A stretch of DNA of 64,000 nt from a virus. The stretch lies in the IMG/VR virus record IMGVR_UViG_3300032294_002823; one strand, given 5' to 3'. The notes beneath the pieces are model-generated. The model saw only the letters and a program-made list of their open reading frames with translations. It searched no databases and was not told the origin of the DNA. Positions 1-9,794 of the stretch are shown one piece after another; the stretch's first letter is position 1, and each line of letters begins with the position of its first letter. Both the position numbers and the translations under genes were made by a program.

Positions 1-345
1 ACTGAAGCTCCAACGACAACCACAACAACAGCGGCACCGACAACAACGACAACAACTGAAGCTCCAGCAACAACGACAACAACTGAAGCTCCAACGACAA
101 CCACAACAACAGCGGCACCGACAACAACGACAACAACTGAAGCTCCAGCAACAACGACAACAACAGGAGCTCCAGCAACAACGACGACAACAGCGGCACC
201 GACAACAACGACAACAACTGAAGCTCCAACGACAACAACGACAACAACAACTGAAGCTCCAACGACAACGACAACATCCACAACTACAACAACATCCACA
301 ACTACAACATCTACGACAACCACGACAACTGCGGCACCAACTACA
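1..345 (+). repeat. Coding tandem repeats (81-bp unit at 1 and 82; shorter ACA/ACG-rich units), reused at about 850-1035
   Basis: actgaagctccaacgacaaccacaacaacagcggcaccg occurs at 1 and 82; gaagctccagcaacaacgacaaca units recur at about 915-990. Confidence 0.85.
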
Positions 346-1185
346 ACACTCTGTTATAGTTCAACATTGGGACTTTCAGGTGTTCAAGGAAGTATATCTG
401 GAGCATGTTCAGCCGCAGCACAATTCACATATTATGTGGGTGGAACCAAGTTGTATACTGACTCGGGATGTGGTACATTTGCATCTAATGGGTATTACGG
501 AGATGGCGGCGGGGTATATTATCAAGTAACAGGCGCAGGTAACTTGACAGGACCAACATCGTGCCCAAGTGTCACAACAACTTCAACCACAACTACAACT
601 ACAGCAGCAACAACAACTACAACATCTTCGTGTATCTCACAGGGTATTAACTTAACAGGTCCCGCAGGAACCGCCGGAGAAGCATGTGCATTGAATGAAA
701 TAGGTGACATCTCAGTGTATGGAAGTGGTGGATTCTACTACACTAATCCTTCATGTACAACTTTTGTAGCAACAGGATTCTACAAGTCAGGATCTGATTA
801 TTATTATGCTGACGGAAGTGGTGGATTAACAGGTCCTACCGTTTGTGGAACAACAACCACAACAACTGCGGCACCGACAACGACAACAACTGCGGCACCG
901 ACAACGACAACAACTGAAGCTCCAGCAACAACGACAACAACTGAAGCTCCAGCAACAACGACAACAACAGGAGCTCCAGCAACAACGACAACAGCAGCAA
1001 CAACAACGACAACAGCAGCAACAACAACGACAACATGTGCTATAGGATGTGTAAACGGTAGTAGAACATGTATAGGTGACGTTGCTGTATGTGACCTTCA
1101 AAGTGACGATTGTTCAATCATATATGGATATACGTTAGAAACATGTGATCCTGGCTGTTGTGCAGGTGGTTTTTGTATCTGCTAA
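1..1185 (+). CDS. Thr-rich mucin-like protein with two 4-Cys modules and a 10-Cys C-terminal domain (5' end outside window); putative virion surface/fibre protein
   Basis: Frame 1 is open from base 1 (TEAPTTTTTTAAPTT...) into the 367..1185 ORF. It has TTTTT(EA/AA/GA)P repeats, two homologous modules ending GNLTGPTSC and GGLTGPTVC, and a terminal CAIGC...GCCAGGFCIC. Confidence 0.8.
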   Translation, partial: TEAPTTTTTTAAPTTTTTTEAPATTTTTEAPTTTTTTAAPTTTTTTEAPATTTTTGAPATTTTTAAPTTTTTTEAPTTTTTTTTEAPTTTTTSTTTTTSTTTTSTTTTTTAAPTTTLCYSSTLGLSGVQGSISGACSAAAQFTYYVGGTKLYTDSGCGTFASNGYYGDGGGVYYQVTGAGNLTGPTSCPSVTTTSTTTTTTAATTTTTSSCISQGINLTGPAGTAGEACALNEIGDISVYGSGGFYYTNPSCTTFVATGFYKSGSDYYYADGSGGLTGPTVCGTTTTTTAAPTTTTTAAPTTTTTEAPATTTTTEAPATTTTTGAPATTTTAATTTTTAATTTTTCAIGCVNGSRTCIGDVAVCDLQSDDCSIIYGYTLETCDPGCCAGGFCIC

Positions 1186-1214: not shown

Positions 1215-2165
1215 ATGAAAAAATTGCGTTACATATCAACTCAACCTGCCATTGATTATTACACATGGCAGGTTGAGGTTATGATACATAACTTTTTAAA
1301 GAATGGTGTGAACGGAAATCACATAGATATTGTCTCCTCTTATAAAGGAACTGTTCCTGACAATTGGAGAAAATTACAGAACAAGTACAATTACATAAGA
1401 TTTTTTTTCTATGAAGATACCCGGGTAGATTCCATTTATCCGGTGACGATTCGTCCACATCTTCTGAAGAAACATTTTGCAGAGCACCCATATTTGGTGG
1501 ATGATGCCATCATGTACCATGATACAGATATTGTATTCACTAAGCCTGTGAATTGGGACCATTATTTGCATGATGATGTATGGTATGGCAGCGATGTTAT
1601 TGGATATCTAGGTTCCAAATATATTCAAAGTAAGAAGTATGGTGTGTATGAACGTATGTGTGATATTGTGGGATTGGAAGAATCCATACCAGAAGAAAAT
1701 GAATTGAACACAATAGGCGCGCAAATCATCATGAAAAATACAACTGTTGAATACTGGGAAAAGGTTGAAAAAGATTGTGAACTTCTTTATCAGTTCTTTT
1801 GCGACCATTTGAAAGCATTCCCAGAGCGTTGTTTAAATAACTACCACCCAATACAGAAATGGACAGCAGAAATGTGGGCTCTATTATGGAATGCGTGGAA
1901 ATTTGGACATGTTACAAAGATAGCAGATGATATGGACTTTTCTTGGCCTATGCATAATCTTGACAGTTGGGAAAAACATTTTATATTTCATAACGCAGGT
2001 GTAATAGCTAAAACTGCGGTAGAAGATAAAATGTTCTTCAAGGGTAATTATGTTGACGGTAAACTTCCCTTTGATATCAGGTTAGAAGATTTTGATGAGA
2101 ATAAATGTACATATAAGTATGTACAAGAGATTTTAGAAACTAAGGAAAAGACATGTCTACTATAA
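1215..2165 (+). CDS. GT-A glycosyltransferase resembling peptidyl O-glycosyltransferases (HPAT/SERGT-like)
   Basis: DxD motif in YHDTDIVFTKP, plus YYTWQ, IRPHLL and KWTAEMWA in the order of the Y..WQ / N(R/K)P / W..EMY blocks recalled for GT95/GT96. Confidence 0.6.
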   Translation: MKKLRYISTQPAIDYYTWQVEVMIHNFLKNGVNGNHIDIVSSYKGTVPDNWRKLQNKYNYIRFFFYEDTRVDSIYPVTIRPHLLKKHFAEHPYLVDDAIMYHDTDIVFTKPVNWDHYLHDDVWYGSDVIGYLGSKYIQSKKYGVYERMCDIVGLEESIPEENELNTIGAQIIMKNTTVEYWEKVEKDCELLYQFFCDHLKAFPERCLNNYHPIQKWTAEMWALLWNAWKFGHVTKIADDMDFSWPMHNLDSWEKHFIFHNAGVIAKTAVEDKMFFKGNYVDGKLPFDIRLEDFDENKCTYKYVQEILETKEKTCLL

Positions 2166-2866
2166 AACTACCAATAGAATGTGTTGAAACTAGAAAAAAA
2201 TATATCTTGTTTAAAAATGATTGTGGAGTTTCAGACCATGCTCGTTGGGGTAGTGTTTATGAATCATACACTTATGATTATATCAAAAAACATATACACA
2301 CAACTAACACAAACATCATTGACATAGGTGCAAATTTTGGATTCCACACGTTGGAATTTGCCGATTTAGTAGGTAATGGAAAAGTATTTTCTTTTGAGCC
2401 ACAACTTCTGGTATATTATCAACTTTGTGGTAACATTATTTTAAATGGATTAAGTAATGTCGTAGCGAAAAATATTGGTGTAGGTGACACAGCTACAACC
2501 TTGAAAATGCAGAATCCTAATTACTTTTCAGAAAGTAAAATTAATATAGGTGATTCTCATTTGGATTGTATTATCGAAGAAAATTTTAATGAGGTTGATG
2601 TACGAACCTTAGATTCTTTCAACATAGAAAATGTTTCAGTTATAAAAATTGATGTTCAAGGATTTGAACCTAGGGTGTTGGATGGTGCCAAAGAAACAAT
2701 TGAAAAAAATAAACCTCATATCTTTATAGAAATTGAACCTCCACAGTTGGCTTTGTATGGATACACCCCAGAGGACATTTTTAATAGATTAGATAATATG
2801 AATTACACCTTTGAAAAAACCATGGACTCTCCTCACCTTTTTGATTACGTGGCATTTCCAAAATGA
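2153..2866 (+). CDS. FkbM-family SAM-dependent methyltransferase
   Basis: IIDIGANFGFHT, VFSFEP and IKIDVQGFE motifs. Confidence 0.9.
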   Translation: MSTIKLPIECVETRKKYILFKNDCGVSDHARWGSVYESYTYDYIKKHIHTTNTNIIDIGANFGFHTLEFADLVGNGKVFSFEPQLLVYYQLCGNIILNGLSNVVAKNIGVGDTATTLKMQNPNYFSESKINIGDSHLDCIIEENFNEVDVRTLDSFNIENVSVIKIDVQGFEPRVLDGAKETIEKNKPHIFIEIEPPQLALYGYTPEDIFNRLDNMNYTFEKTMDSPHLFDYVAFPK

Positions 2867-3657
2867 AGAAAATTAGTTTTGTATGTACGACATTTAGACG
2901 ATTCACATGTGTTAAGAGAATAGTTGCTCAGTTCTATGCACAAACATATCCCAATAAAGAATTGATTATTTTCAACACGGATATGGAATACCCATACTCT
3001 AAAAACTTCCAAGATGATTCAGTTATCATTGTGAATAATGATAAAGATTATCTGACAGGTGCAGATTATATTAATCGTGCACAAATTTGTAGAGATGCTG
3101 TGACACATGCAACAGGTGAGTATTTCATGTTGGCGGACGATGATGACATATATTTACCTTGGCATATGCAACAAGCAGTAGATAGAATTGAAGAAGATGG
3201 TACAGATGCCTGGAAACCTCAAAAAAGTTTTTTTGCGACAGGCAATCGTGTTGAACTATCTCAAAACGTCATGGAAGCTAGTATAATAATTAAGATGGAA
3301 AGAATACGAGAAATTGGATTTAACGAAGGTGAGACAACAGGCCTTGAAGGTATGTCATGGTACAATGTACTGAAACAGGAAGGACACATTGTCGAAGATT
3401 ATGCATATGCTGTCCCTGGATATTCTTTTAATTGGTCTGATCCCGTTGATATTGGCGGAAATAAACAAAGTAGTACAATAGGACGAGAAAATAATTTTGA
3501 ATTGCATAAACTAGAAACTAAAGATTATGCAACATCTCCCTTAGAAAAAATCTTGGAGACAAGAGAAATTTATGAAAAATACTATGACTTTTTTAGAAAA
3601 AATTTACATCTTTTTGAACCTATACTATTGAAAAAATATGTTACCAAATTCATTTAA
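2863..3657 (+). CDS. Glycosyltransferase family 2
   Basis: ISFVCTTFRR...QTYPNKELII and ATGEYFMLADDDDIYLP. Confidence 0.85.
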   Translation: MKKISFVCTTFRRFTCVKRIVAQFYAQTYPNKELIIFNTDMEYPYSKNFQDDSVIIVNNDKDYLTGADYINRAQICRDAVTHATGEYFMLADDDDIYLPWHMQQAVDRIEEDGTDAWKPQKSFFATGNRVELSQNVMEASIIIKMERIREIGFNEGETTGLEGMSWYNVLKQEGHIVEDYAYAVPGYSFNWSDPVDIGGNKQSSTIGRENNFELHKLETKDYATSPLEKILETREIYEKYYDFFRKNLHLFEPILLKKYVTKFI

Positions 3658-4306
3658 TGACGTAGCCAATATCATTGATACATCGTCTGTACCCATTTTA
3701 ATACTTGTGATATCTGAAGGGTGTGAAAATGGATTAAGACCTGAACAACAGCAATTAGAACAAAAGCTACAAGAACATCCTACACCTGTGGTATATTACA
3801 CCTTGTGTATCCCAGAACATCTCATGGGATTCCCTCGCGCGCACACGCCCACGCTATACTATTTTCTGCCGAAAAATCAAACGCCTGTGTTTTGGCGTTT
3901 TGCGGTATTCAATAATACATTGAATGATGATTTAAACATCATCACAAAAATGATGACAGGATTGACATATGACCAAGCTCGTTTCACACCTGAAGAACAA
4001 GAAACCATTTTAAAGGTTGATTATTTTTTAGAACAGGAGAAGGAAACTATCCATAACTTTCCTTCGGTATTTCAACAGGCACGAAGTCTCGCCAAAGAAA
4101 TGTGGAAAACAGGAAAAAACGCCGCAAAGGGGTTACCTGTCATTGTTCCCACTGAAGTGGGATTTGAACGTATGAATACCTGTCAGTCATGTGACAAGTT
4201 GGAAAAAGAAACATTTCGTTGTACTGAATGTGGTTGTTTCATGAAAGCCAAGACTCAGCTCGCCTCAGCATCATGTCCGTTAAATAAATGGGCACCACAT
4301 GTATAA
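3638..4306 (+). CDS. Thioredoxin-like N-terminal domain fused to a Cys-cluster C-terminal domain (DUF6171-like)
   Basis: ILVISEGC...TPTLYYF resembles a Trx fold; C-terminal RMNTCQSC...CTECGCFMKAKT...SCPLNKW. Confidence 0.5.
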   Translation: MLPNSFNDVANIIDTSSVPILILVISEGCENGLRPEQQQLEQKLQEHPTPVVYYTLCIPEHLMGFPRAHTPTLYYFLPKNQTPVFWRFAVFNNTLNDDLNIITKMMTGLTYDQARFTPEEQETILKVDYFLEQEKETIHNFPSVFQQARSLAKEMWKTGKNAAKGLPVIVPTEVGFERMNTCQSCDKLEKETFRCTECGCFMKAKTQLASASCPLNKWAPHV

Positions 4307-4309: not shown

Positions 4310-4337
4310 CTATAGAACGATTAATTAGGATTTCTCA

Positions 4338-4751
4338 ATGGCAACGTTAACATTACGAACAGTTAAAGGATCAACATTAACACATCAAGAACTTGATGAC
4401 AATCTCTCAAACTTGAATAGTTTCAAGGTTGAAGGTCGTGCAGGAACGTTAACAACAACAAGTACGTCATCAAATCAACTATTGGATTCTGTTGCAGCTT
4501 CTTCTGTTCGAACATTGCGATACATCGTTCAAGTTGCCAACACAACTACGAGTGAGTTTCATGCCACATCTCTCATGATTATTCATGATGGAACCACTGT
4601 GTATTTAACTGAATATGGCACTGTATTGACAGGAAATTCGTTGGCAACATTTGATGCTGATATTAATGGTGGAAATCTTCGTATTTTAGTTACGCCTACA
4701 AATGCATCATCAACGGTGTTTCGTTTTTCTGCTATGACAATTCAGGCATAA
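4338..4751 (+). CDS. Virion structural protein; C-terminal beta domain shared with the 7854..9794 fibre
   Basis: N-terminal TLRTVKGSTLTHQELDDNL; IHDGTTVYLTEYG...FDADINGGNLRILVTPT parallels the C-terminus of 7854..9794. Confidence 0.6.
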   Translation: MATLTLRTVKGSTLTHQELDDNLSNLNSFKVEGRAGTLTTTSTSSNQLLDSVAASSVRTLRYIVQVANTTTSEFHATSLMIIHDGTTVYLTEYGTVLTGNSLATFDADINGGNLRILVTPTNASSTVFRFSAMTIQA

Positions 4752-4761
4752 TTTCAAAAAT

Positions 4762-4769
4762 TATAAATA
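4762..4769 (+). promoter_or_regulatory. T4-type late promoter
   Basis: TATAAATA immediately upstream of 4778. Confidence 0.75.
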
Positions 4770-4777
4770 TTCAACAT

Positions 4778-5110
4778 ATGGCAACTGTTCGTAACTTAGT
4801 CATTGACCAAGGTAGTACATATTCAATTTCCATTGAACTGTCTGATGCCTTTGGCAATCCTTTAGATTTAACTGATTATACCATTCGTGCCCAAATGCGT
4901 AAAAGTTATGGGTCGAACACGTATACTCAATTCACAACTTCCGCAGGTGATGAACCTGAGAATGGGACAATTACATTATCATTAACATCAACTCAAACAC
5001 GAGCATTACGTTTTGGTCGTTATGTCTATGATATTGAAATTGAAAATGATGATGTAGTTACCAGAGTTCTTGAAGGAATAGTAACCGTAACACCCGAGGT
5101 CACACGATAA
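4778..5110 (+). CDS. Virion structural protein (baseplate/fibre adaptor-like Ig fold)
   Basis: NLVIDQGS...DLTDYT.RAQMRK...GRYVYDIE...RVLEG.VTVTPEVT, a pattern common in T4-like environmental phages; late promoter upstream. Confidence 0.65.
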   Translation: MATVRNLVIDQGSTYSISIELSDAFGNPLDLTDYTIRAQMRKSYGSNTYTQFTTSAGDEPENGTITLSLTSTQTRALRFGRYVYDIEIENDDVVTRVLEGIVTVTPEVTR

Positions 5111-5322
5111 TGGCACTCAAAGTACAAGTATCAACACCTCAAAGAATTAATACAAATGTAAAAAAGGTTTCGTTACCTCTAGTTAATCTAGAAGAATTGA
5201 AGAATGTGAATAAAGCTAATTTAGAAGATGGTGCCACTTTGATATGGAATGAGACGGAACAACGTTGGGATGCGCAGCAAATTCAAGCGATAGCAACAAA
5301 CATAGATGGTGGAACATATTAA
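5110..5322 (+). CDS. Small structural protein with C-terminal DGGTY tag
   Basis: LEELKNV...DGATLIWN...RW fibre-type repeat; ends IDGGTY; translationally coupled to the upstream gene. Confidence 0.6.
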   Translation: MALKVQVSTPQRINTNVKKVSLPLVNLEELKNVNKANLEDGATLIWNETEQRWDAQQIQAIATNIDGGTY

Positions 5323-5343
5323 AAACTTCAAAGGAGATTTTCC

Positions 5344-7050
5344 ATGTCAACAGTAATTCAAATTAAGCGTTCTTCAGGATCAACAGCACCAGCAACATCT
5401 GCCTTAGCAGAAGGCGAATTAGCGTATAGTCAAGACCGCTCCAACAGCGGCGCCGGCGCCATTCTTTACATCGAATCTGTAGGTTCAGATGGCACAACAC
5501 AAGTTATTGATAAAGTAGGTGGTAAATACTACACCAACACAGTTGATGCCTTCTTAGTTCCTGCCACAGGATCAGCAGGTGCAAAGGTGGAATTAAAGGA
5601 TGCTGACGCATCAAATTCCATCACATTAAAGGCACCTAACACAGTTGCAGCGAACGTTACATACACATTACCTTCAACATTCAGTGCAGACCAATATTTA
5701 AAGACTGACGGTTCAGGTAATCTTTCATTCGCTGCCGTTCCATCAGGATCCTTCACACTTGCAGCTGACACAGGCACTGACACTTTCACAACAGGTGAAA
5801 CATTAACATTCACTGGCGGTGAAGGTATTGATACATCAGTTAGCGATAACACCATCACAATTTCTGCCGAAGATGCATCTGATACCAACAAGGGTATTGC
5901 ATCATTTAACAGTACCAACTTCACAGTATCATCAGGTGCTGTAACCATCAATTCTGTTGAAGCCACTAAGGTTAATATTGCAGGTGGCACATCATTAACA
6001 TCATTGGCTGATTCTGATGAATTCTTGGTCTATGATGCCTCAGCAGAAGCAAATCGTCGCATCACAGCAGAAAACGTTGCAGATTACATCTATGCCGGAT
6101 TGTCAGGTGACATCAGTGTAACTGAAGCAGGTGTAGTTTCTATTGCCGCTAACTCAGTAGCACTAGGCACAGACACAACAGGTAACTATGTTGCCACTGT
6201 TGCGGGTACTGCAAATCAAATTTCCATCACTGGCTCAGGCTCAGAAAATGCCGCTGTTACAGTTGCATTAACTGACGATGTGGCATTGGTAGGTGATTTG
6301 ACAGTTGGTGGTAACGACATCAAGATGAGTGGTGGCACAACAGCCATTACATTCTCAGGTTCAGGTGATGTTGCCGTTACTGGTGATTTGAAGGTTGGTG
6401 GTAACGACATCAAGACAGCCAACGGAGCAACTGCTTTAACACTTTCAGATTCAACAGGTAATGTTGAAGTTAAGGGTGATTTACAAGTTACAGGTAACGA
6501 TATCAAGTCATCAACAGGCGCAACAGCTTTAACACTTGATGGCGCTAACGTAACTGTGGCAGGTAACTTAACAGTTAACGGTTCATCAACAATTGTAAAC
6601 TCAACAACTGTAACAATTGATGACGTACTCTTGAAGTTGGCTGATAACAACACAGGCAACTCAGTTGACTCAGGTGTCTATGCTGAATATGTTGAATCAT
6701 CAACAACCAAATATGCTGGTTTCTTCCGCGATGCGTCTGATAACAACATCTTCAAGTTCTTCAAAGGATTAGAATCAGAACCATCAACAACTGTTAACGT
6801 AAGTGGTACAGGTTACTCAGTTGGTACAATCTTAGCCAACTTGACAGGCGGTACTGTTTCAAGTCTAGCAGCAGCAATTGGTGTTGCCGATGGTGGTACA
6901 GGAGCCACAACATTAACAAGTAACGGTGTATTGTATGGTAACGGTACAAGTGCCATTCAAGCAACAGCAGCAGGTACAGCGGGATACTTCTTGTATTCAA
7001 ACAACGGCACGCCTGCTTGGACTAACGTAGTAGATGGTGGTACTTACTAA
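5344..7050 (+). CDS. Tail fibre-like structural protein
   Basis: N-terminal IQIKRS...LAEGELA domain; three GDL.V.GNDIK repeats; ends VDGGTY; SD aaggag upstream. Confidence 0.75.
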   Translation: MSTVIQIKRSSGSTAPATSALAEGELAYSQDRSNSGAGAILYIESVGSDGTTQVIDKVGGKYYTNTVDAFLVPATGSAGAKVELKDADASNSITLKAPNTVAANVTYTLPSTFSADQYLKTDGSGNLSFAAVPSGSFTLAADTGTDTFTTGETLTFTGGEGIDTSVSDNTITISAEDASDTNKGIASFNSTNFTVSSGAVTINSVEATKVNIAGGTSLTSLADSDEFLVYDASAEANRRITAENVADYIYAGLSGDISVTEAGVVSIAANSVALGTDTTGNYVATVAGTANQISITGSGSENAAVTVALTDDVALVGDLTVGGNDIKMSGGTTAITFSGSGDVAVTGDLKVGGNDIKTANGATALTLSDSTGNVEVKGDLQVTGNDIKSSTGATALTLDGANVTVAGNLTVNGSSTIVNSTTVTIDDVLLKLADNNTGNSVDSGVYAEYVESSTTKYAGFFRDASDNNIFKFFKGLESEPSTTVNVSGTGYSVGTILANLTGGTVSSLAAAIGVADGGTGATTLTSNGVLYGNGTSAIQATAAGTAGYFLYSNNGTPAWTNVVDGGTY

Positions 7051-7071
7051 TAACTTTTTAAAGGATTCGTT

Positions 7072-7254
7072 ATGGACACACAAAAACTTTTGAATAAGTA
7101 CATTGCCTCTTTGGGTGAGCAAGTTAAGCAGTTAACAATGGAAAAAACAATGTTGTCTGCTCAACTTGCCATCGCCCAAGAGGAATTGGAAGAATTGAAA
7201 AAGAAGTTAGATACTTCCCCATCAACTGAAGAAAATAATCAATGGCAACAATAA
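7072..7254 (+). CDS. Small coiled-coil protein (possible fibre chaperone)
   Basis: Heptad pattern; SD aagga; lies within the fibre operon. Confidence 0.55.
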   Translation: MDTQKLLNKYIASLGEQVKQLTMEKTMLSAQLAIAQEELEELKKKLDTSPSTEENNQWQQ

Positions 7255-7595
7255 TTAAGCTTAAAAGAAGCGAGTTAGCATTAGCTATACCAACCGTCAA
7301 TGATTTGGCGGTTGGTGAACTTGCTATAAATACTGTTGATAAAGTTTTCTACATCAAAACATCAGGTAATCTGGTTGTTCCTGTTGCCAATTATGTTGAT
7401 ATTGATGCTGAAGCAATTGATAATCGGTTAGAAATTTTAGAAGATGCTTTGATAGGAGCAACATTTCCCATAGGCGATTATGGAAATTTAAATGCTCTTT
7501 CTGTGGACGCTTTTGGTATTTCCGTTAGTCCCACGTATGACTGCTTAAATACTCCTATAGGAGCAGTAGCAGAAATAGATTTAGGCGCATTCTAA
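7242..7595 (+). CDS. Small fibre-associated structural protein
   Basis: IIKLKRS...LAVGELAINTVD N-domain like 5344; ends IDLGAF. Confidence 0.6.
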   Translation: MATIIKLKRSELALAIPTVNDLAVGELAINTVDKVFYIKTSGNLVVPVANYVDIDAEAIDNRLEILEDALIGATFPIGDYGNLNALSVDAFGISVSPTYDCLNTPIGAVAEIDLGAF

Positions 7596-7612
7596 ATATA
7601 GAGGTAACTTCA

Positions 7613-7819
7613 ATGCCAACACCAACTGTCGTACAATTTCGTAGAGGTACTACAGCACAAAACAATTTGTTTACAGGAGCAGAAGGAGAAATTTCTGTAG
7701 ACATTTCTAAAGGAACCATTCGCGTCCATGACGCAGTAACACCGGGTGGGCATGAGTTGATGAAAGTAGATTTAACCAACGTTGCAAATAACGCCAGTTT
7801 GGATGGCGGAACATATTAA
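7613..7819 (+). CDS. Stand-alone fibre N-terminal (Mtd_N-like) domain protein
   Basis: VQFRRGTTAQNNLFTGAEGEISVD...HDAVTPGG, near-identical to the N-terminus of 7854; ends LDGGTY. Confidence 0.7.
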   Translation: MPTPTVVQFRRGTTAQNNLFTGAEGEISVDISKGTIRVHDAVTPGGHELMKVDLTNVANNASLDGGTY

Positions 7820-7853
7820 TGAAAAATACATGACCCGCTTAGGAGAATAATAG

Positions 7854-9794
7854 ATGCCAACACAGGTACAGTTTCGCAGAGGTACTACAACACAGAACAA
7901 TAATTTCACAGGCGCTGCCGGTGAAATTTCTATAGATACCGAAGTAAAAACCATTAGATTACATGATGGCTCCACAGCGGGCGGTATAACAATGGCAAGA
8001 GCTGATTTGTCAAACACATCAGCCATTACTGGTTCTAGTACAACTACATTAACAAACAAGACATTCAATTTATCGAGCAATACATTATCAGGAACAATTG
8101 CTCAGTTCAACACCGCCCTTTCAGACGGTGATTTTGCCACATTGGCAGGTGTTGAAACATTAACAAACAAAACAATTAATGGTGATAACAACACCATTAC
8201 AAATATTGCCAATGGCTCATTAAAAAATAGTAGTATCACGATTAACGGTACATCAACATCACTAGGTGGTACACGAACACTTGTCACCGATGATATTGCA
8301 GAAACAGTCACACCTACCAATAGATATTTCACTGATGCGCGTGCGCGCGGTGTTATTTCTGTAACTGATTCAGGTGGTGATGGTAGTTTAAGTTACAACT
8401 CAACGTCGGGTGTCATCACATATACAGGTCCCAGTGCCACAGAAGTTCGAGCACATTTTTCAGGGGGCACAGGTGTCACAATTTCATCAGGTGTTGTGGC
8501 TATCGGACAAGAAGTAGGAACAGGCTCAAATGTTACATTTAACAATTTAACTGTTTCAGGAAATCTTACAGTTTCAGGCACAAGTACCACAGTTAATACT
8601 GAAACTATTAATCTTGCTGATAACATCATCGTATTGAATAGTAACGCCTCAGGAGCTCCTACTGAAAATGCCGGTCTTGAAGTAAGTAGAGGAACATCAG
8701 ATGCCGTTCAACTTCGTTGGAATGAAGCAAATGATGTATGGGAATACACCAATGACGGTACCACATATTTTGTTGTAACGGGTGCCACTGCAACACAAAC
8801 ATTGACAAACAAGACCATTAGTGGTTCTAGTAACACCATCAGTAATATTGCCAATAGTTCATTAACAAATAGCAGTATCACCATTAACGGTACATCAGTA
8901 TCATTGGGCGGCACACGAACATTAACTGCCGATGATGTTGCTGAAGCAGGTTCACCCACAAATAAGTATTTCACAGATGCGCGTGCTCGCGGCGCCATCT
9001 CTGTATCTGATGTAAGTGGCGATGGTAGCTTATCATATAGTTCATCTACGGGTGTCATCACATATACAGGTCCCAGTGCCACAGAAGTTCGTGCCCATCT
9101 ATCGGCAGGCACAGGATTAACATATACCTCAGGACAATTTGCCATTGATTCATCAGTTGTAACATTGTCAGGTGAACAAACATTAACCAATAAAACCATT
9201 AATGGTGACCAATTGGTTAACGGGTCTGTGGGAAATGTTAAGCTGTCACACAGTACCATTTCAGGTGTTGCATTAGGACATAATTTAAATGCACTAACAA
9301 TTGGTACAGGACTTTCAGGATCATCATATAATGGTTCAAGTTCTGTTACCATTGCCATTGATTCAACAGTTGCAACGTTGTCAGGCACACAAACATTAAC
9401 GAACAAAACTCTTACAAGTCCTACACTCACAACACCTACATTGGGTGTGGCAACAGCAACATCTGTTGCATTAGCCAATGGTATTCTTCGTTCAGCTACA
9501 CTGACAACATCTGCCACAACAGCAAATCAAGTGTTAGATAGTATTGCAATTGCAACATATAGAAGTGTGAAATATCAAATTTCCATCACATCAGGATCTG
9601 CATATCAAATGACTGAAGTTAGCCTCATTCATGATGGAACCGGAGCCTATATCACAGAATATGGTACCATTTCAACAGGCGCATCATTGGCAGACTTTCA
9701 TGCTGATATTTCAAGCGGTAATCTTCGTTTGTTAACAACACCCACAAACGCAGCCACTACATATAAAATCATGGCAACTGCCATCAACGTATAA
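7854..9794 (+). CDS. Tail fibre protein with an internal duplication
   Basis: VQFRRGT N-domain; repeated TLTNKT and YFTDARAR...TYTGPSATEVRAH blocks. Confidence 0.8.
   Translation: MPTQVQFRRGTTTQNNNFTGAAGEISIDTEVKTIRLHDGSTAGGITMARADLSNTSAITGSSTTTLTNKTFNLSSNTLSGTIAQFNTALSDGDFATLAGVETLTNKTINGDNNTITNIANGSLKNSSITINGTSTSLGGTRTLVTDDIAETVTPTNRYFTDARARGVISVTDSGGDGSLSYNSTSGVITYTGPSATEVRAHFSGGTGVTISSGVVAIGQEVGTGSNVTFNNLTVSGNLTVSGTSTTVNTETINLADNIIVLNSNASGAPTENAGLEVSRGTSDAVQLRWNEANDVWEYTNDGTTYFVVTGATATQTLTNKTISGSSNTISNIANSSLTNSSITINGTSVSLGGTRTLTADDVAEAGSPTNKYFTDARARGAISVSDVSGDGSLSYSSSTGVITYTGPSATEVRAHLSAGTGLTYTSGQFAIDSSVVTLSGEQTLTNKTINGDQLVNGSVGNVKLSHSTISGVALGHNLNALTIGTGLSGSSYNGSSSVTIAIDSTVATLSGTQTLTNKTLTSPTLTTPTLGVATATSVALANGILRSATLTTSATTANQVLDSIAIATYRSVKYQISITSGSAYQMTEVSLIHDGTGAYITEYGTISTGASLADFHADISSGNLRLLTTPTNAATTYKIMATAINV
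8407..9091 (+). repeat. Identical 43-bp direct repeat (8407-8449 and 9049-9091) within a duplicated fibre module
   Basis: cgggtgtcatcacatatacaggtcccagtgccacagaagttcg occurs twice. Confidence 0.85.

Follow-up and report, generated by a model that had tools for sequence, protein, structure and literature searches.

Soluble GT-A glycosyltransferases genetically coupled to poly-threonine proteins in phages: candidate initiators of virion O-glycosylation

Glycosylation of phage particles has been described for the actinobacteriophages Che8, Corndog and Myrna, whose virions carry O-linked glycans (Freeman et al. 2023, Cell Host Microbe 31:1216, as cited in PMC12619734, PMC12801897 and PMC13313380). 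In these phages, according to the citing papers, one or more phage glycosyltransferases (GTs), often together with a methyltransferase, are encoded near the structural genes and provide the particle with a glycan coat, which is placed on the C-terminal regions of the capsid and tail-tube subunits; in the literature found, virion glycosylation is cited for actinobacteriophages only. In plants, peptidyl O-glycosylation of structural proteins is started, on extended repeats of hydroxy amino acids, by the hydroxyproline O-arabinosyltransferases HPAT1-3 (GT95; PF23452) and the peptidyl-serine alpha-galactosyltransferase SGT1 (GT96) (PMC8012813). Here we describe a gene of a phage. It was found in a stretch of 64,000 nucleotides (nt) from IMG/VR virus record IMGVR_UViG_3300032294_002823, referred to as the window, and it consists of an open reading frame (ORF) at positions 1215..2165 that lies directly downstream of a gene for a mucin-like, threonine-rich protein. 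The ORF product is probably a cytoplasmic, metal-dependent GT-A peptidyl-threonine O-glycosyltransferase that starts the glycosylation of the virion.

The window derives from a T4-like myovirus, as its portal, sheath and tube proteins match those of cyanomyoviruses at about 67% nucleotide identity, and an earlier note on this DNA, which had taken the transferase to be phage-encoded, was correct in this respect. In comparison with the actinobacteriophage system, the acceptor signal in the window would be an explicit poly-threonine run, and the carrier is a mucin-like modular protein of 495 residues rather than the tail of a capsid or tube subunit. The phages that carry the family have their hosts in the Bacillota and Bacteroidota or are T4-like phages of aquatic hosts, in contrast to the actinobacteriophages. 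A further parallel is offered by mucin-type O-glycosylation in animals, where GT-A enzymes, the N-acetylgalactosaminyltransferases (GT27), start the dense O-glycosylation of threonine- and proline-rich tandem repeats and other enzymes extend the chains, a division of labor that is also proposed for the window. The GT27 enzymes are, however, unrelated in sequence to the window transferase, which has no lectin domain and is cytoplasmic instead of residing in the Golgi.

The transferase family and its coupling to poly-threonine tracts

The ORF is located on the + strand, begins with ATG and encodes 316 amino acids. A Shine-Dalgarno-like sequence, AAGGTGA, is present about 12 nt upstream of the start, and the stop of the ORF shares 13 nt with the next gene, which places the ORF within an operon. 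An AlphaFold2 model based on alignment A1 (38 homologues, 47-82% identity) has a predicted local distance difference test score (pLDDT) of 96.1 and a predicted template modelling (pTM) score of 0.91. Strands and helices alternate in the model, which displays the Rossmann-like alpha/beta/alpha arrangement of GT-A enzymes with a DxD motif placed after the central strand. By its predicted fold the product is a glycosyltransferase of the GT-A type, as the earlier note had proposed from the sequence. No hydrophobic segment was detected (the highest Kyte-Doolittle mean over 19 residues is 0.55) and the first strand begins at residue 4; the enzyme is therefore considered to be soluble and cytoplasmic, with no membrane anchor.

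Four motif blocks had been pointed out in the earlier note, and all of them are present in the ORF (Table 1); the third and fourth belong to the longer segments HDTDIVFTKP (residues 102-111) and QKWTAEMWA (residues 214-222). A fifth block, FHNAG (residues 258-262), was absent from that list. The corresponding columns are conserved in A1, in 102 more distant representatives (alignment A2) and in 120 members from Bacillota prophages (alignment A3), so the blocks constitute a genuine family signature rather than chance words. Profile-profile comparison shows that A3 and the window family are the same family (E=2e-82). The invariant columns of A1 include W18, Y75, H102, D103, D105, Q214, W216, M220, W221, H259, N260 and G262, while in A2 and A3 the DxD aspartates, the W and M of the W..EM block and the histidine of HNAG are invariant or conserved in at least 90% of members. 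H102, D103, D105, H259 and Gln170 of a GGAQ motif are invariant throughout the three alignments, which together cover about 260 members. With regard to the WQ motif, the tryptophan is conserved, whereas Q19 is not universal, as the Bacillota members of A3 have W-E in its place. The HNAG histidine is a candidate third metal ligand by analogy with GT8 enzymes.

The PHROGs database places the transferase in phrog_4417, a family of 'unknown function' (E=1e-67), and the public names of its relatives are 'hypothetical protein' or 'prophage pi2 protein 34'. Neither NCBIfam nor the Pfam GT8 profile (PF01501) matched the transferase, and hidden Markov model searches against PDB sequences, with the single sequence as well as with the A1 profile, returned nothing meaningful. 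A profile search of 1.84 billion representatives yielded 1003 family proteins at E<=1e-3, with 575 of these at E<=1e-30; among the matches listed (the best 150 of the 1003) all are close family and none provides a bridge to a named family. A literature search returned no paper on the family or on phage proteins with poly-threonine tails.

The genomic surroundings of the family were analyzed at 80 IMG/VR loci with a homologue, a tract being defined as at least 15 threonines within 30 residues on the same strand. At 53 of 78 loci a poly-threonine tract ends within 1 kb upstream of the transferase; the values for the other upstream kilobase bins are 0.02-0.15, and those for the downstream bins are about 0. 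When all loci are taken together, an upstream poly-threonine ORF is encountered in 112 of 164. Once their threonine tracts are masked, the carriers fall into 26 clusters that are unrelated in sequence and that range from fragments of 60 residues to structural proteins of 2200 residues. In cultured siphophages of Gram-positive hosts the transferase gene follows the gene for the major tail or major capsid protein, and those proteins end in threonine tails (for example, gp50 and gp45 of Enterococcus phage phiFL1A, the capsid protein and gp8 of Lactobacillus phage iLp84, the tail protein of Enterococcus phage VPE25 and gp18 of Clostridium phage phiCTP1). Among 73 loci from bacterial genomes, nearly all Bacillota prophages have a major tail protein (phrog_88) that ends in ...YPxTTTTTTTTSA, with its stop codon 2-20 nt before the transferase start. 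The transferase gene thereby adjoins or lies among virion structural genes, namely the tail and capsid genes in Bacillota phages and the fibre region in the window, where it sits between fibre genes.

The Bacillota major tail protein served as a control. Of 80 homologues collected from IMG/VR (A4), 73 are followed by enough downstream sequence. Poly-threonine tails are present in 18 of these 73 proteins, and all 18 have the transferase downstream (no more than 14 nt from the stop in 17 cases and 467 nt away in one), whereas the transferase follows none of the 55 that have no such tail (Fisher p=1.8e-17). To allow for the relatedness of the major-tail-protein loci, a tree was built from these proteins after removal of their tails. 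The best tree requires 11 changes of the paired trait, at least four of which are forced by strongly supported branches, and tail and transferase change in the same direction in 11 of 11 contrasts, or in four of four when the strongly supported (starred) branches are considered. Because tail and gene change together, tag and enzyme move as one cassette. The coupling of the family to poly-threonine is near-obligate, and the claim of the earlier note that the transferase sits beside its likely substrate is borne out by the upstream ORFs, the tail-protein control and the tree contrasts.

One tail protein has an unusual coding arrangement. In Staphylococcus phage RQ1 (PV344601.1; L006:4229-4931) the annotated major tail protein ends in ...GSTTTTTTTP directly before the transferase gene, and an overlapping ORF in another frame adds about 80 residues of TTTTTTT(V/E/Q)AP repeats, which looks like a programmed frameshift that would give long and short poly-threonine forms of the tail tube protein.

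The gene upstream of the transferase in the window is truncated by the window edge, and its full product (P0121, 495 residues) is encoded on an overlapping contig (L007:2039-3526), where the preceding gene encodes a tail fibre that has a Peptidase_S74 (chaperone) domain. P0121 consists of 36% threonine and is composed of a 75-residue N-terminal region, long TTTTTT(E/A)AP runs, two cysteine-containing modules of about 65 residues and a cysteine-rich C-terminus. Tandem repeats of 27, 54 and 81 nt occur in its gene, and no other ORF of the window has a threonine run (at least eight in 12 residues). A tblastn search of the 76-residue N-terminus against cultured phages gave no match. The window extends the pairing of poly-threonine and transferase to T4-like aquatic myoviruses, in which a large mucin-like modular carrier takes the place of a short tail.

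The two modules of the window carrier are copies of the pattern C..GAC...YY...LYTD..C.TF..GYY...LTGP..C and matched no known family. Carrier proteins of aquatic phages often end in small cysteine-rich modules with a cysteine among the last one to six residues (...GGFCIC in the window), as seen in the window (1-1185) and in L012, L018, L021, L023, L031, L043, L052, L057 and L089. On a related T4-like contig (L010:4313-5968) two adjacent poly-threonine ORFs in different frames (4313-5404 and 5408-5968) are located 5' of the transferase, where the public gene call has two small minus-strand genes instead; this carrier gene is probably either miscalled or frameshifted.

Relation to HPAT, SGT1 and GT8-type enzymes

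From a putative motif-by-motif parallel (WQ, N(R/K)P, DxD and W..EM blocks), the earlier note had proposed that the transferase may be a viral member of the GT95/GT96 clade; the conserved blocks of the window protein come in the order given there. In a structure search of the ESM Atlas, a Chlorophyta cluster with PF23452 (HPAT) in 99% of its members matched the transferase with a template modelling (TM) score of 0.75 over 286 of 316 residues, a value that refers to predicted models and was given without an alignment. Apart from this algal cluster, the Atlas structural neighbours listed include no named non-viral family. HPAT is also the commonest label among the nearest named Atlas clusters by language-model features, as it accounts for some share of 19 out of 30, with DUF7164 occurring in six. 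As a scale for the TM score, Orf49 of Lactobacillus phage LP65, a distant true member of the family at 23% identity, has a score of 0.74 in BFVD, and generic viral GT8 models have scores of 0.35-0.5.

Profile searches gave a different picture for this claim. About 276 family members, including those from Bacillota, Bacteroidota and cultured phages, were compared with the Pfam HPAT profile, for which the gathering score is 23.9 bits; a single match was returned (E=0.089) and none exceeded the cut-off. Searches for PF23452 came up empty in the nearest viral record, in five genomes with a member of the transferase family and in 401 Cyanobacteriota genomes, as did a search for PF23741 (DUF7164) in 401 Pseudomonadota genomes. 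The best solved structures for the transferase model are generic GT8-type enzymes, which is half of the outcome that the earlier note had named as speaking against its proposal. Since no GT95 or GT96 chain was seen among the solved-structure matches, these best matches do not refute a kinship with HPAT.

The GT8-type retaining GT-A enzymes used for comparison were LgtC (1g9r), glycogenin, the catalytic domain of UGGT (GT24), the Skp1 alpha-galactosyltransferase AgtA (6mw8) and GlyE (5gvv), which is involved in the glycosylation of serine-rich-repeat adhesins. Identity to the transferase is only 6-13%, about 70-100 residues of the model remain unaligned, and the WQ, IRP and W..EMW blocks are specific to the transferase family. 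HPAT and SGT1, on the other hand, are peptidyl O-glycosyltransferases that act on repetitive tracts, as is proposed for the phage enzyme. They differ from it in being plant enzymes with a type II Golgi membrane anchor and in having hydroxyproline or serine as acceptor, whereas the window family is found in phages and bacteria, its window member is soluble and anchorless, and the acceptor is likely threonine. A remote kinship of the family to HPAT (GT95) and SGT1 (GT96) is plausible, with the balance standing about even, and the family is not a demonstrable member of either. The earlier claim of clade membership is thus supported in part only, and the family label has not been earned.

Proposed mechanism and alternative explanations

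In the cytoplasm of the infected cell, the transferase would use D103/D105 and probably H259 to bind a divalent metal ion together with a nucleotide sugar of the host. It would recognize runs of threonine and attach the first sugar to the threonine hydroxyls of the adjoining 495-residue carrier, probably by a retaining reaction, judging from the likeness to GT8-type enzymes. The GT2 enzyme encoded nearby would extend this sugar, and the FkbM methyltransferase would cap the chain by methylation. The outcome would be a bottle-brush glycoprotein on the virion, wherein a stiff, protease-resistant, mucin-like stalk bears the small cysteine-rich modules.

The presence of a second glycosyltransferase (GT2) in the window raises the question of which enzyme acts first, and a GT-A fold alone cannot separate initiating from extending enzymes. 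The transferase might therefore extend a glycan whose first sugar is placed on threonine by a host enzyme or by the neighbouring GT2. We consider this unlikely, as the transferase is the conserved element beside poly-threonine, whereas other transferases vary or are absent. Enterococcus phage phiFL1A encodes a member of the transferase family (gp51) and has poly-threonine tails on gp45 and gp50, and its 61 genes include no other annotated glycosyltransferase; if these tails are glycosylated, the transferase must act on protein directly. In two-domain relatives the window domain forms the constant N-terminal half, and the C-terminal half is a variable GT7C, GT2, GT6, GT25, GT29, GT32 or GT61 domain. 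A constant transferase domain combined with interchangeable second GTs and neighbours is the pattern expected of an initiator with variable extenders, and it favours an initiating role. These fusions to bona fide second GT domains are frequent, and they also bear on the proposal that the protein is an inert GT-fold chaperone or scaffold that binds poly-threonine tails during assembly, for which it can be said that the gene is placed where siphophage tail modules have accessory or chaperone genes. Across the approximately 260 aligned members there is no variation at the DxD, histidine and glutamine positions typical of active GT-A enzymes, and an inert protein is accordingly a highly improbable explanation.

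Two further alternatives assume an active enzyme with another chemistry or another acceptor. The Pfam scan of the transferase returned only a sub-threshold match to Stealth_CR2 (E=0.041; 14.5 bits against a cut-off of 39.4), and the same profile matched five of the 38 A1 members, with a best E of 0.002. These matches would allow for a Stealth-like hexose-1-phosphate transferase that would phosphoglycosylate threonine and create a sugar-phosphate-threonine bond. Within the set of Stealth regions CR1-CR4, CR2 alone is touched, below the Pfam cut-off, and we regard this chemistry as quite improbable. Alternatively, the acceptor may be something other than protein, such as an envelope polysaccharide, teichoic acid or lipopolysaccharide (LPS) of the host, modified for serotype conversion or superinfection exclusion, or the phage DNA. 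DNA and host surface glycans are the acceptors of most phage glycosyltransferases described to date (papers cited in PMC12619734 and PMC12801897), and the solved folds closest to the transferase model include the LPS enzymes LgtC and WbbM. Such acceptors would not be expected to leave the transferase gene inside late structural operons, with its start often 2-20 nt past a tail or capsid stop, nor to have it gained and lost together with a poly-threonine tail, and the enzyme has no membrane segment; a non-protein acceptor is for these reasons decidedly doubtful.

Several observations weigh against the peptidyl-threonine reading that we prefer. P0121 is matched by neither PHROGs nor Pfam, and gene position is the sole basis for assigning it to the virion. 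The Pfam HPAT profile does not match the window transferase at E<=10, and the weak Stealth_CR2 match leaves open a sugar-phosphate transfer chemistry. About one third of the loci have no upstream poly-threonine ORF, which truncated contigs explain in some cases and not in all. As the loci are related, raw counts overstate their independence, and more reliance can be placed on the tree contrasts, of which there are 11 on the best tree and four firm ones. The literature search also turned up no biochemical or mass-spectrometric data on members of the family.

Neighbouring genes, Bacteroidota clusters and implications

The features of the locus are compiled in Table 1. The idea that the transferase and the three genes that follow it in the window form a conserved four-gene cassette was rejected, as the FkbM gene accompanies the transferase in only two of the 164 loci, a downstream GT2 gene in 15 and the DUF6171 protein in seven. 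The thioredoxin/DUF6171-type protein accompanies the transferase occasionally, and some relatives have the two as a fusion.

Table 1. Coordinates of the transferase, its motif blocks, its neighbours in the window and related Bacteroidota loci (L numbers denote contigs other than the window)
Feature	Position	Strand	Basis
Mucin-like poly-threonine protein, 3' part, 394 codons, cut by window edge; proposed acceptor	1..1185	+	Threonine content, repeats
Soluble GT-A glycosyltransferase, PHROG 4417; proposed peptidyl-threonine O-glycosyltransferase	1215..2165	+	Fold, alignment, genome context
YYTWQ block, residues 15-19, starts helix 14-29	1257..1271	+	W18 invariant, Q19 at least 90% in A1
YPVTIRP block, residues 75-81	1437..1457	+	Y75 invariant in A1; Pro at least 90% in A2 and A3
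H-D-T-D, residues 102-105, DxD metal/nucleotide-sugar motif right after strand 98-102	1518..1529	+	H102, D103, D105 invariant in A1
WTAEMW block, residues 216-221, starts helix 215-229	1860..1877	+	W216, M220, W221 (near-)invariant in A1, A2, A3
HNAG block, residues 259-262, strand 257-259	1989..2000	+	His invariant in A1, A2, A3
FkbM-family methyltransferase, candidate sugar O-methylase (capping)	2153..2866	+	PF05050 E=1.4e-16; TIGR01444 E=1.5e-30
GT2-family glycosyltransferase, candidate chain extender	2863..3657	+	PF00535 E=3.6e-07
Thioredoxin-fold domain (residues 1-108, single Cys 'EGCE') and C-terminal DUF6171-type zinc ribbon	3638..4306	+	
Bacteroidota bacteriocin-like or RiPP-like (ribosomally synthesized and post-translationally modified peptide) clusters	L141:2663-10719 (Pedobacter); L104:532-8812		
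Bacteroidota leader-peptide loci, further coordinates	L136:4200-4505; L166:4160-4354; L145:4390-4620		

Fibre-like ORFs in the window (4338-9794) and on the overlapping contig (L007:1067-2017) have a short N-terminal word in common, in the forms MATLTLR..., MATIIKLKR..., MPTPTVVQFRRGT...FTGAEGEISVD and MPTQVQFRRGT...FTGAAGEISID (Mtd_N-like), which suggests that they are paralogous fibres that plug into one socket. On two related large phage contigs (L011:8400-9440 and L012:6921-7925) a radical SAM/SPASM gene is positioned directly after the transferase or its neighbour, and one representative of the transferase family is fused to a radical SAM/SPASM domain; this hints at further peptide modification of cysteine-rich carriers.

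Chromosomal homologues without a poly-threonine neighbour were encountered in Chitinophaga, Pedobacter, Sphingobacterium and Olivibacter. These Bacteroidota homologues are two-domain proteins of 505-711 residues, and their gene clusters encode a Peptidase_C39-ABC exporter, a fusion of C39, VKOR and thioredoxin domains, a thioredoxin/AhpC protein and a LanC-like protein. Small ORFs at these loci have double-glycine leaders of the form ...LSREQLKxVLGG (MKKISLKNLNLKEVEQLSREQLKDVLGG) followed by cores rich in S, T, C and G. The architecture is similar to that of glycocin biosynthesis, in which SunS/GccA-type GT2 enzymes, SunT-type C39-ABC exporters and thiol-disulfide oxidoreductases participate; the Bacteroidota clusters differ in that their transferase belongs to the window family and is fused to a second domain. 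To our knowledge, the glycocin transferases described so far belong to GT2 and their clusters come from Bacillota. By analogy the make-up of the Bacteroidota clusters points to peptide acceptors for the transferase family, and these clusters may represent a new kind of glycocin cluster.

A wider proposal, held more tentatively and with the doubts slightly ahead, is that the transferases represent a very large, unrecognized family of peptidyl-threonine O-glycosyltransferases, a prokaryotic and viral sister of GT95/GT96. Under this proposal a genetically portable cassette of poly-threonine tag and transferase may provide a mucin-type coat for the capsids, tails and fibres of tailed phages of Bacillota, Bacteroidota and aquatic hosts, and it may have been re-used for glycosylated bacteriocins in Bacteroidota. 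If so, these would be the first prokaryotic or viral relatives of the plant-specific GT95/GT96 enzymes, and Bacteroidota would hold a new class of glycosylated peptides. A short poly-threonine tail would be a transferable glycosylation tag, and, with one soluble enzyme dedicated to such a simple sequence tag, the pair would be a possible tool for protein glycosylation in the bacterial cytoplasm. Sugar-coated particles would be common among phages of enterococci, lactobacilli, staphylococci, listeriae and clostridia, among Bacteroidota phages and among aquatic T4-like myoviruses, which would bear on the immunogenicity and clearance of phages in therapy, on their adherence to mucus and on host recognition.

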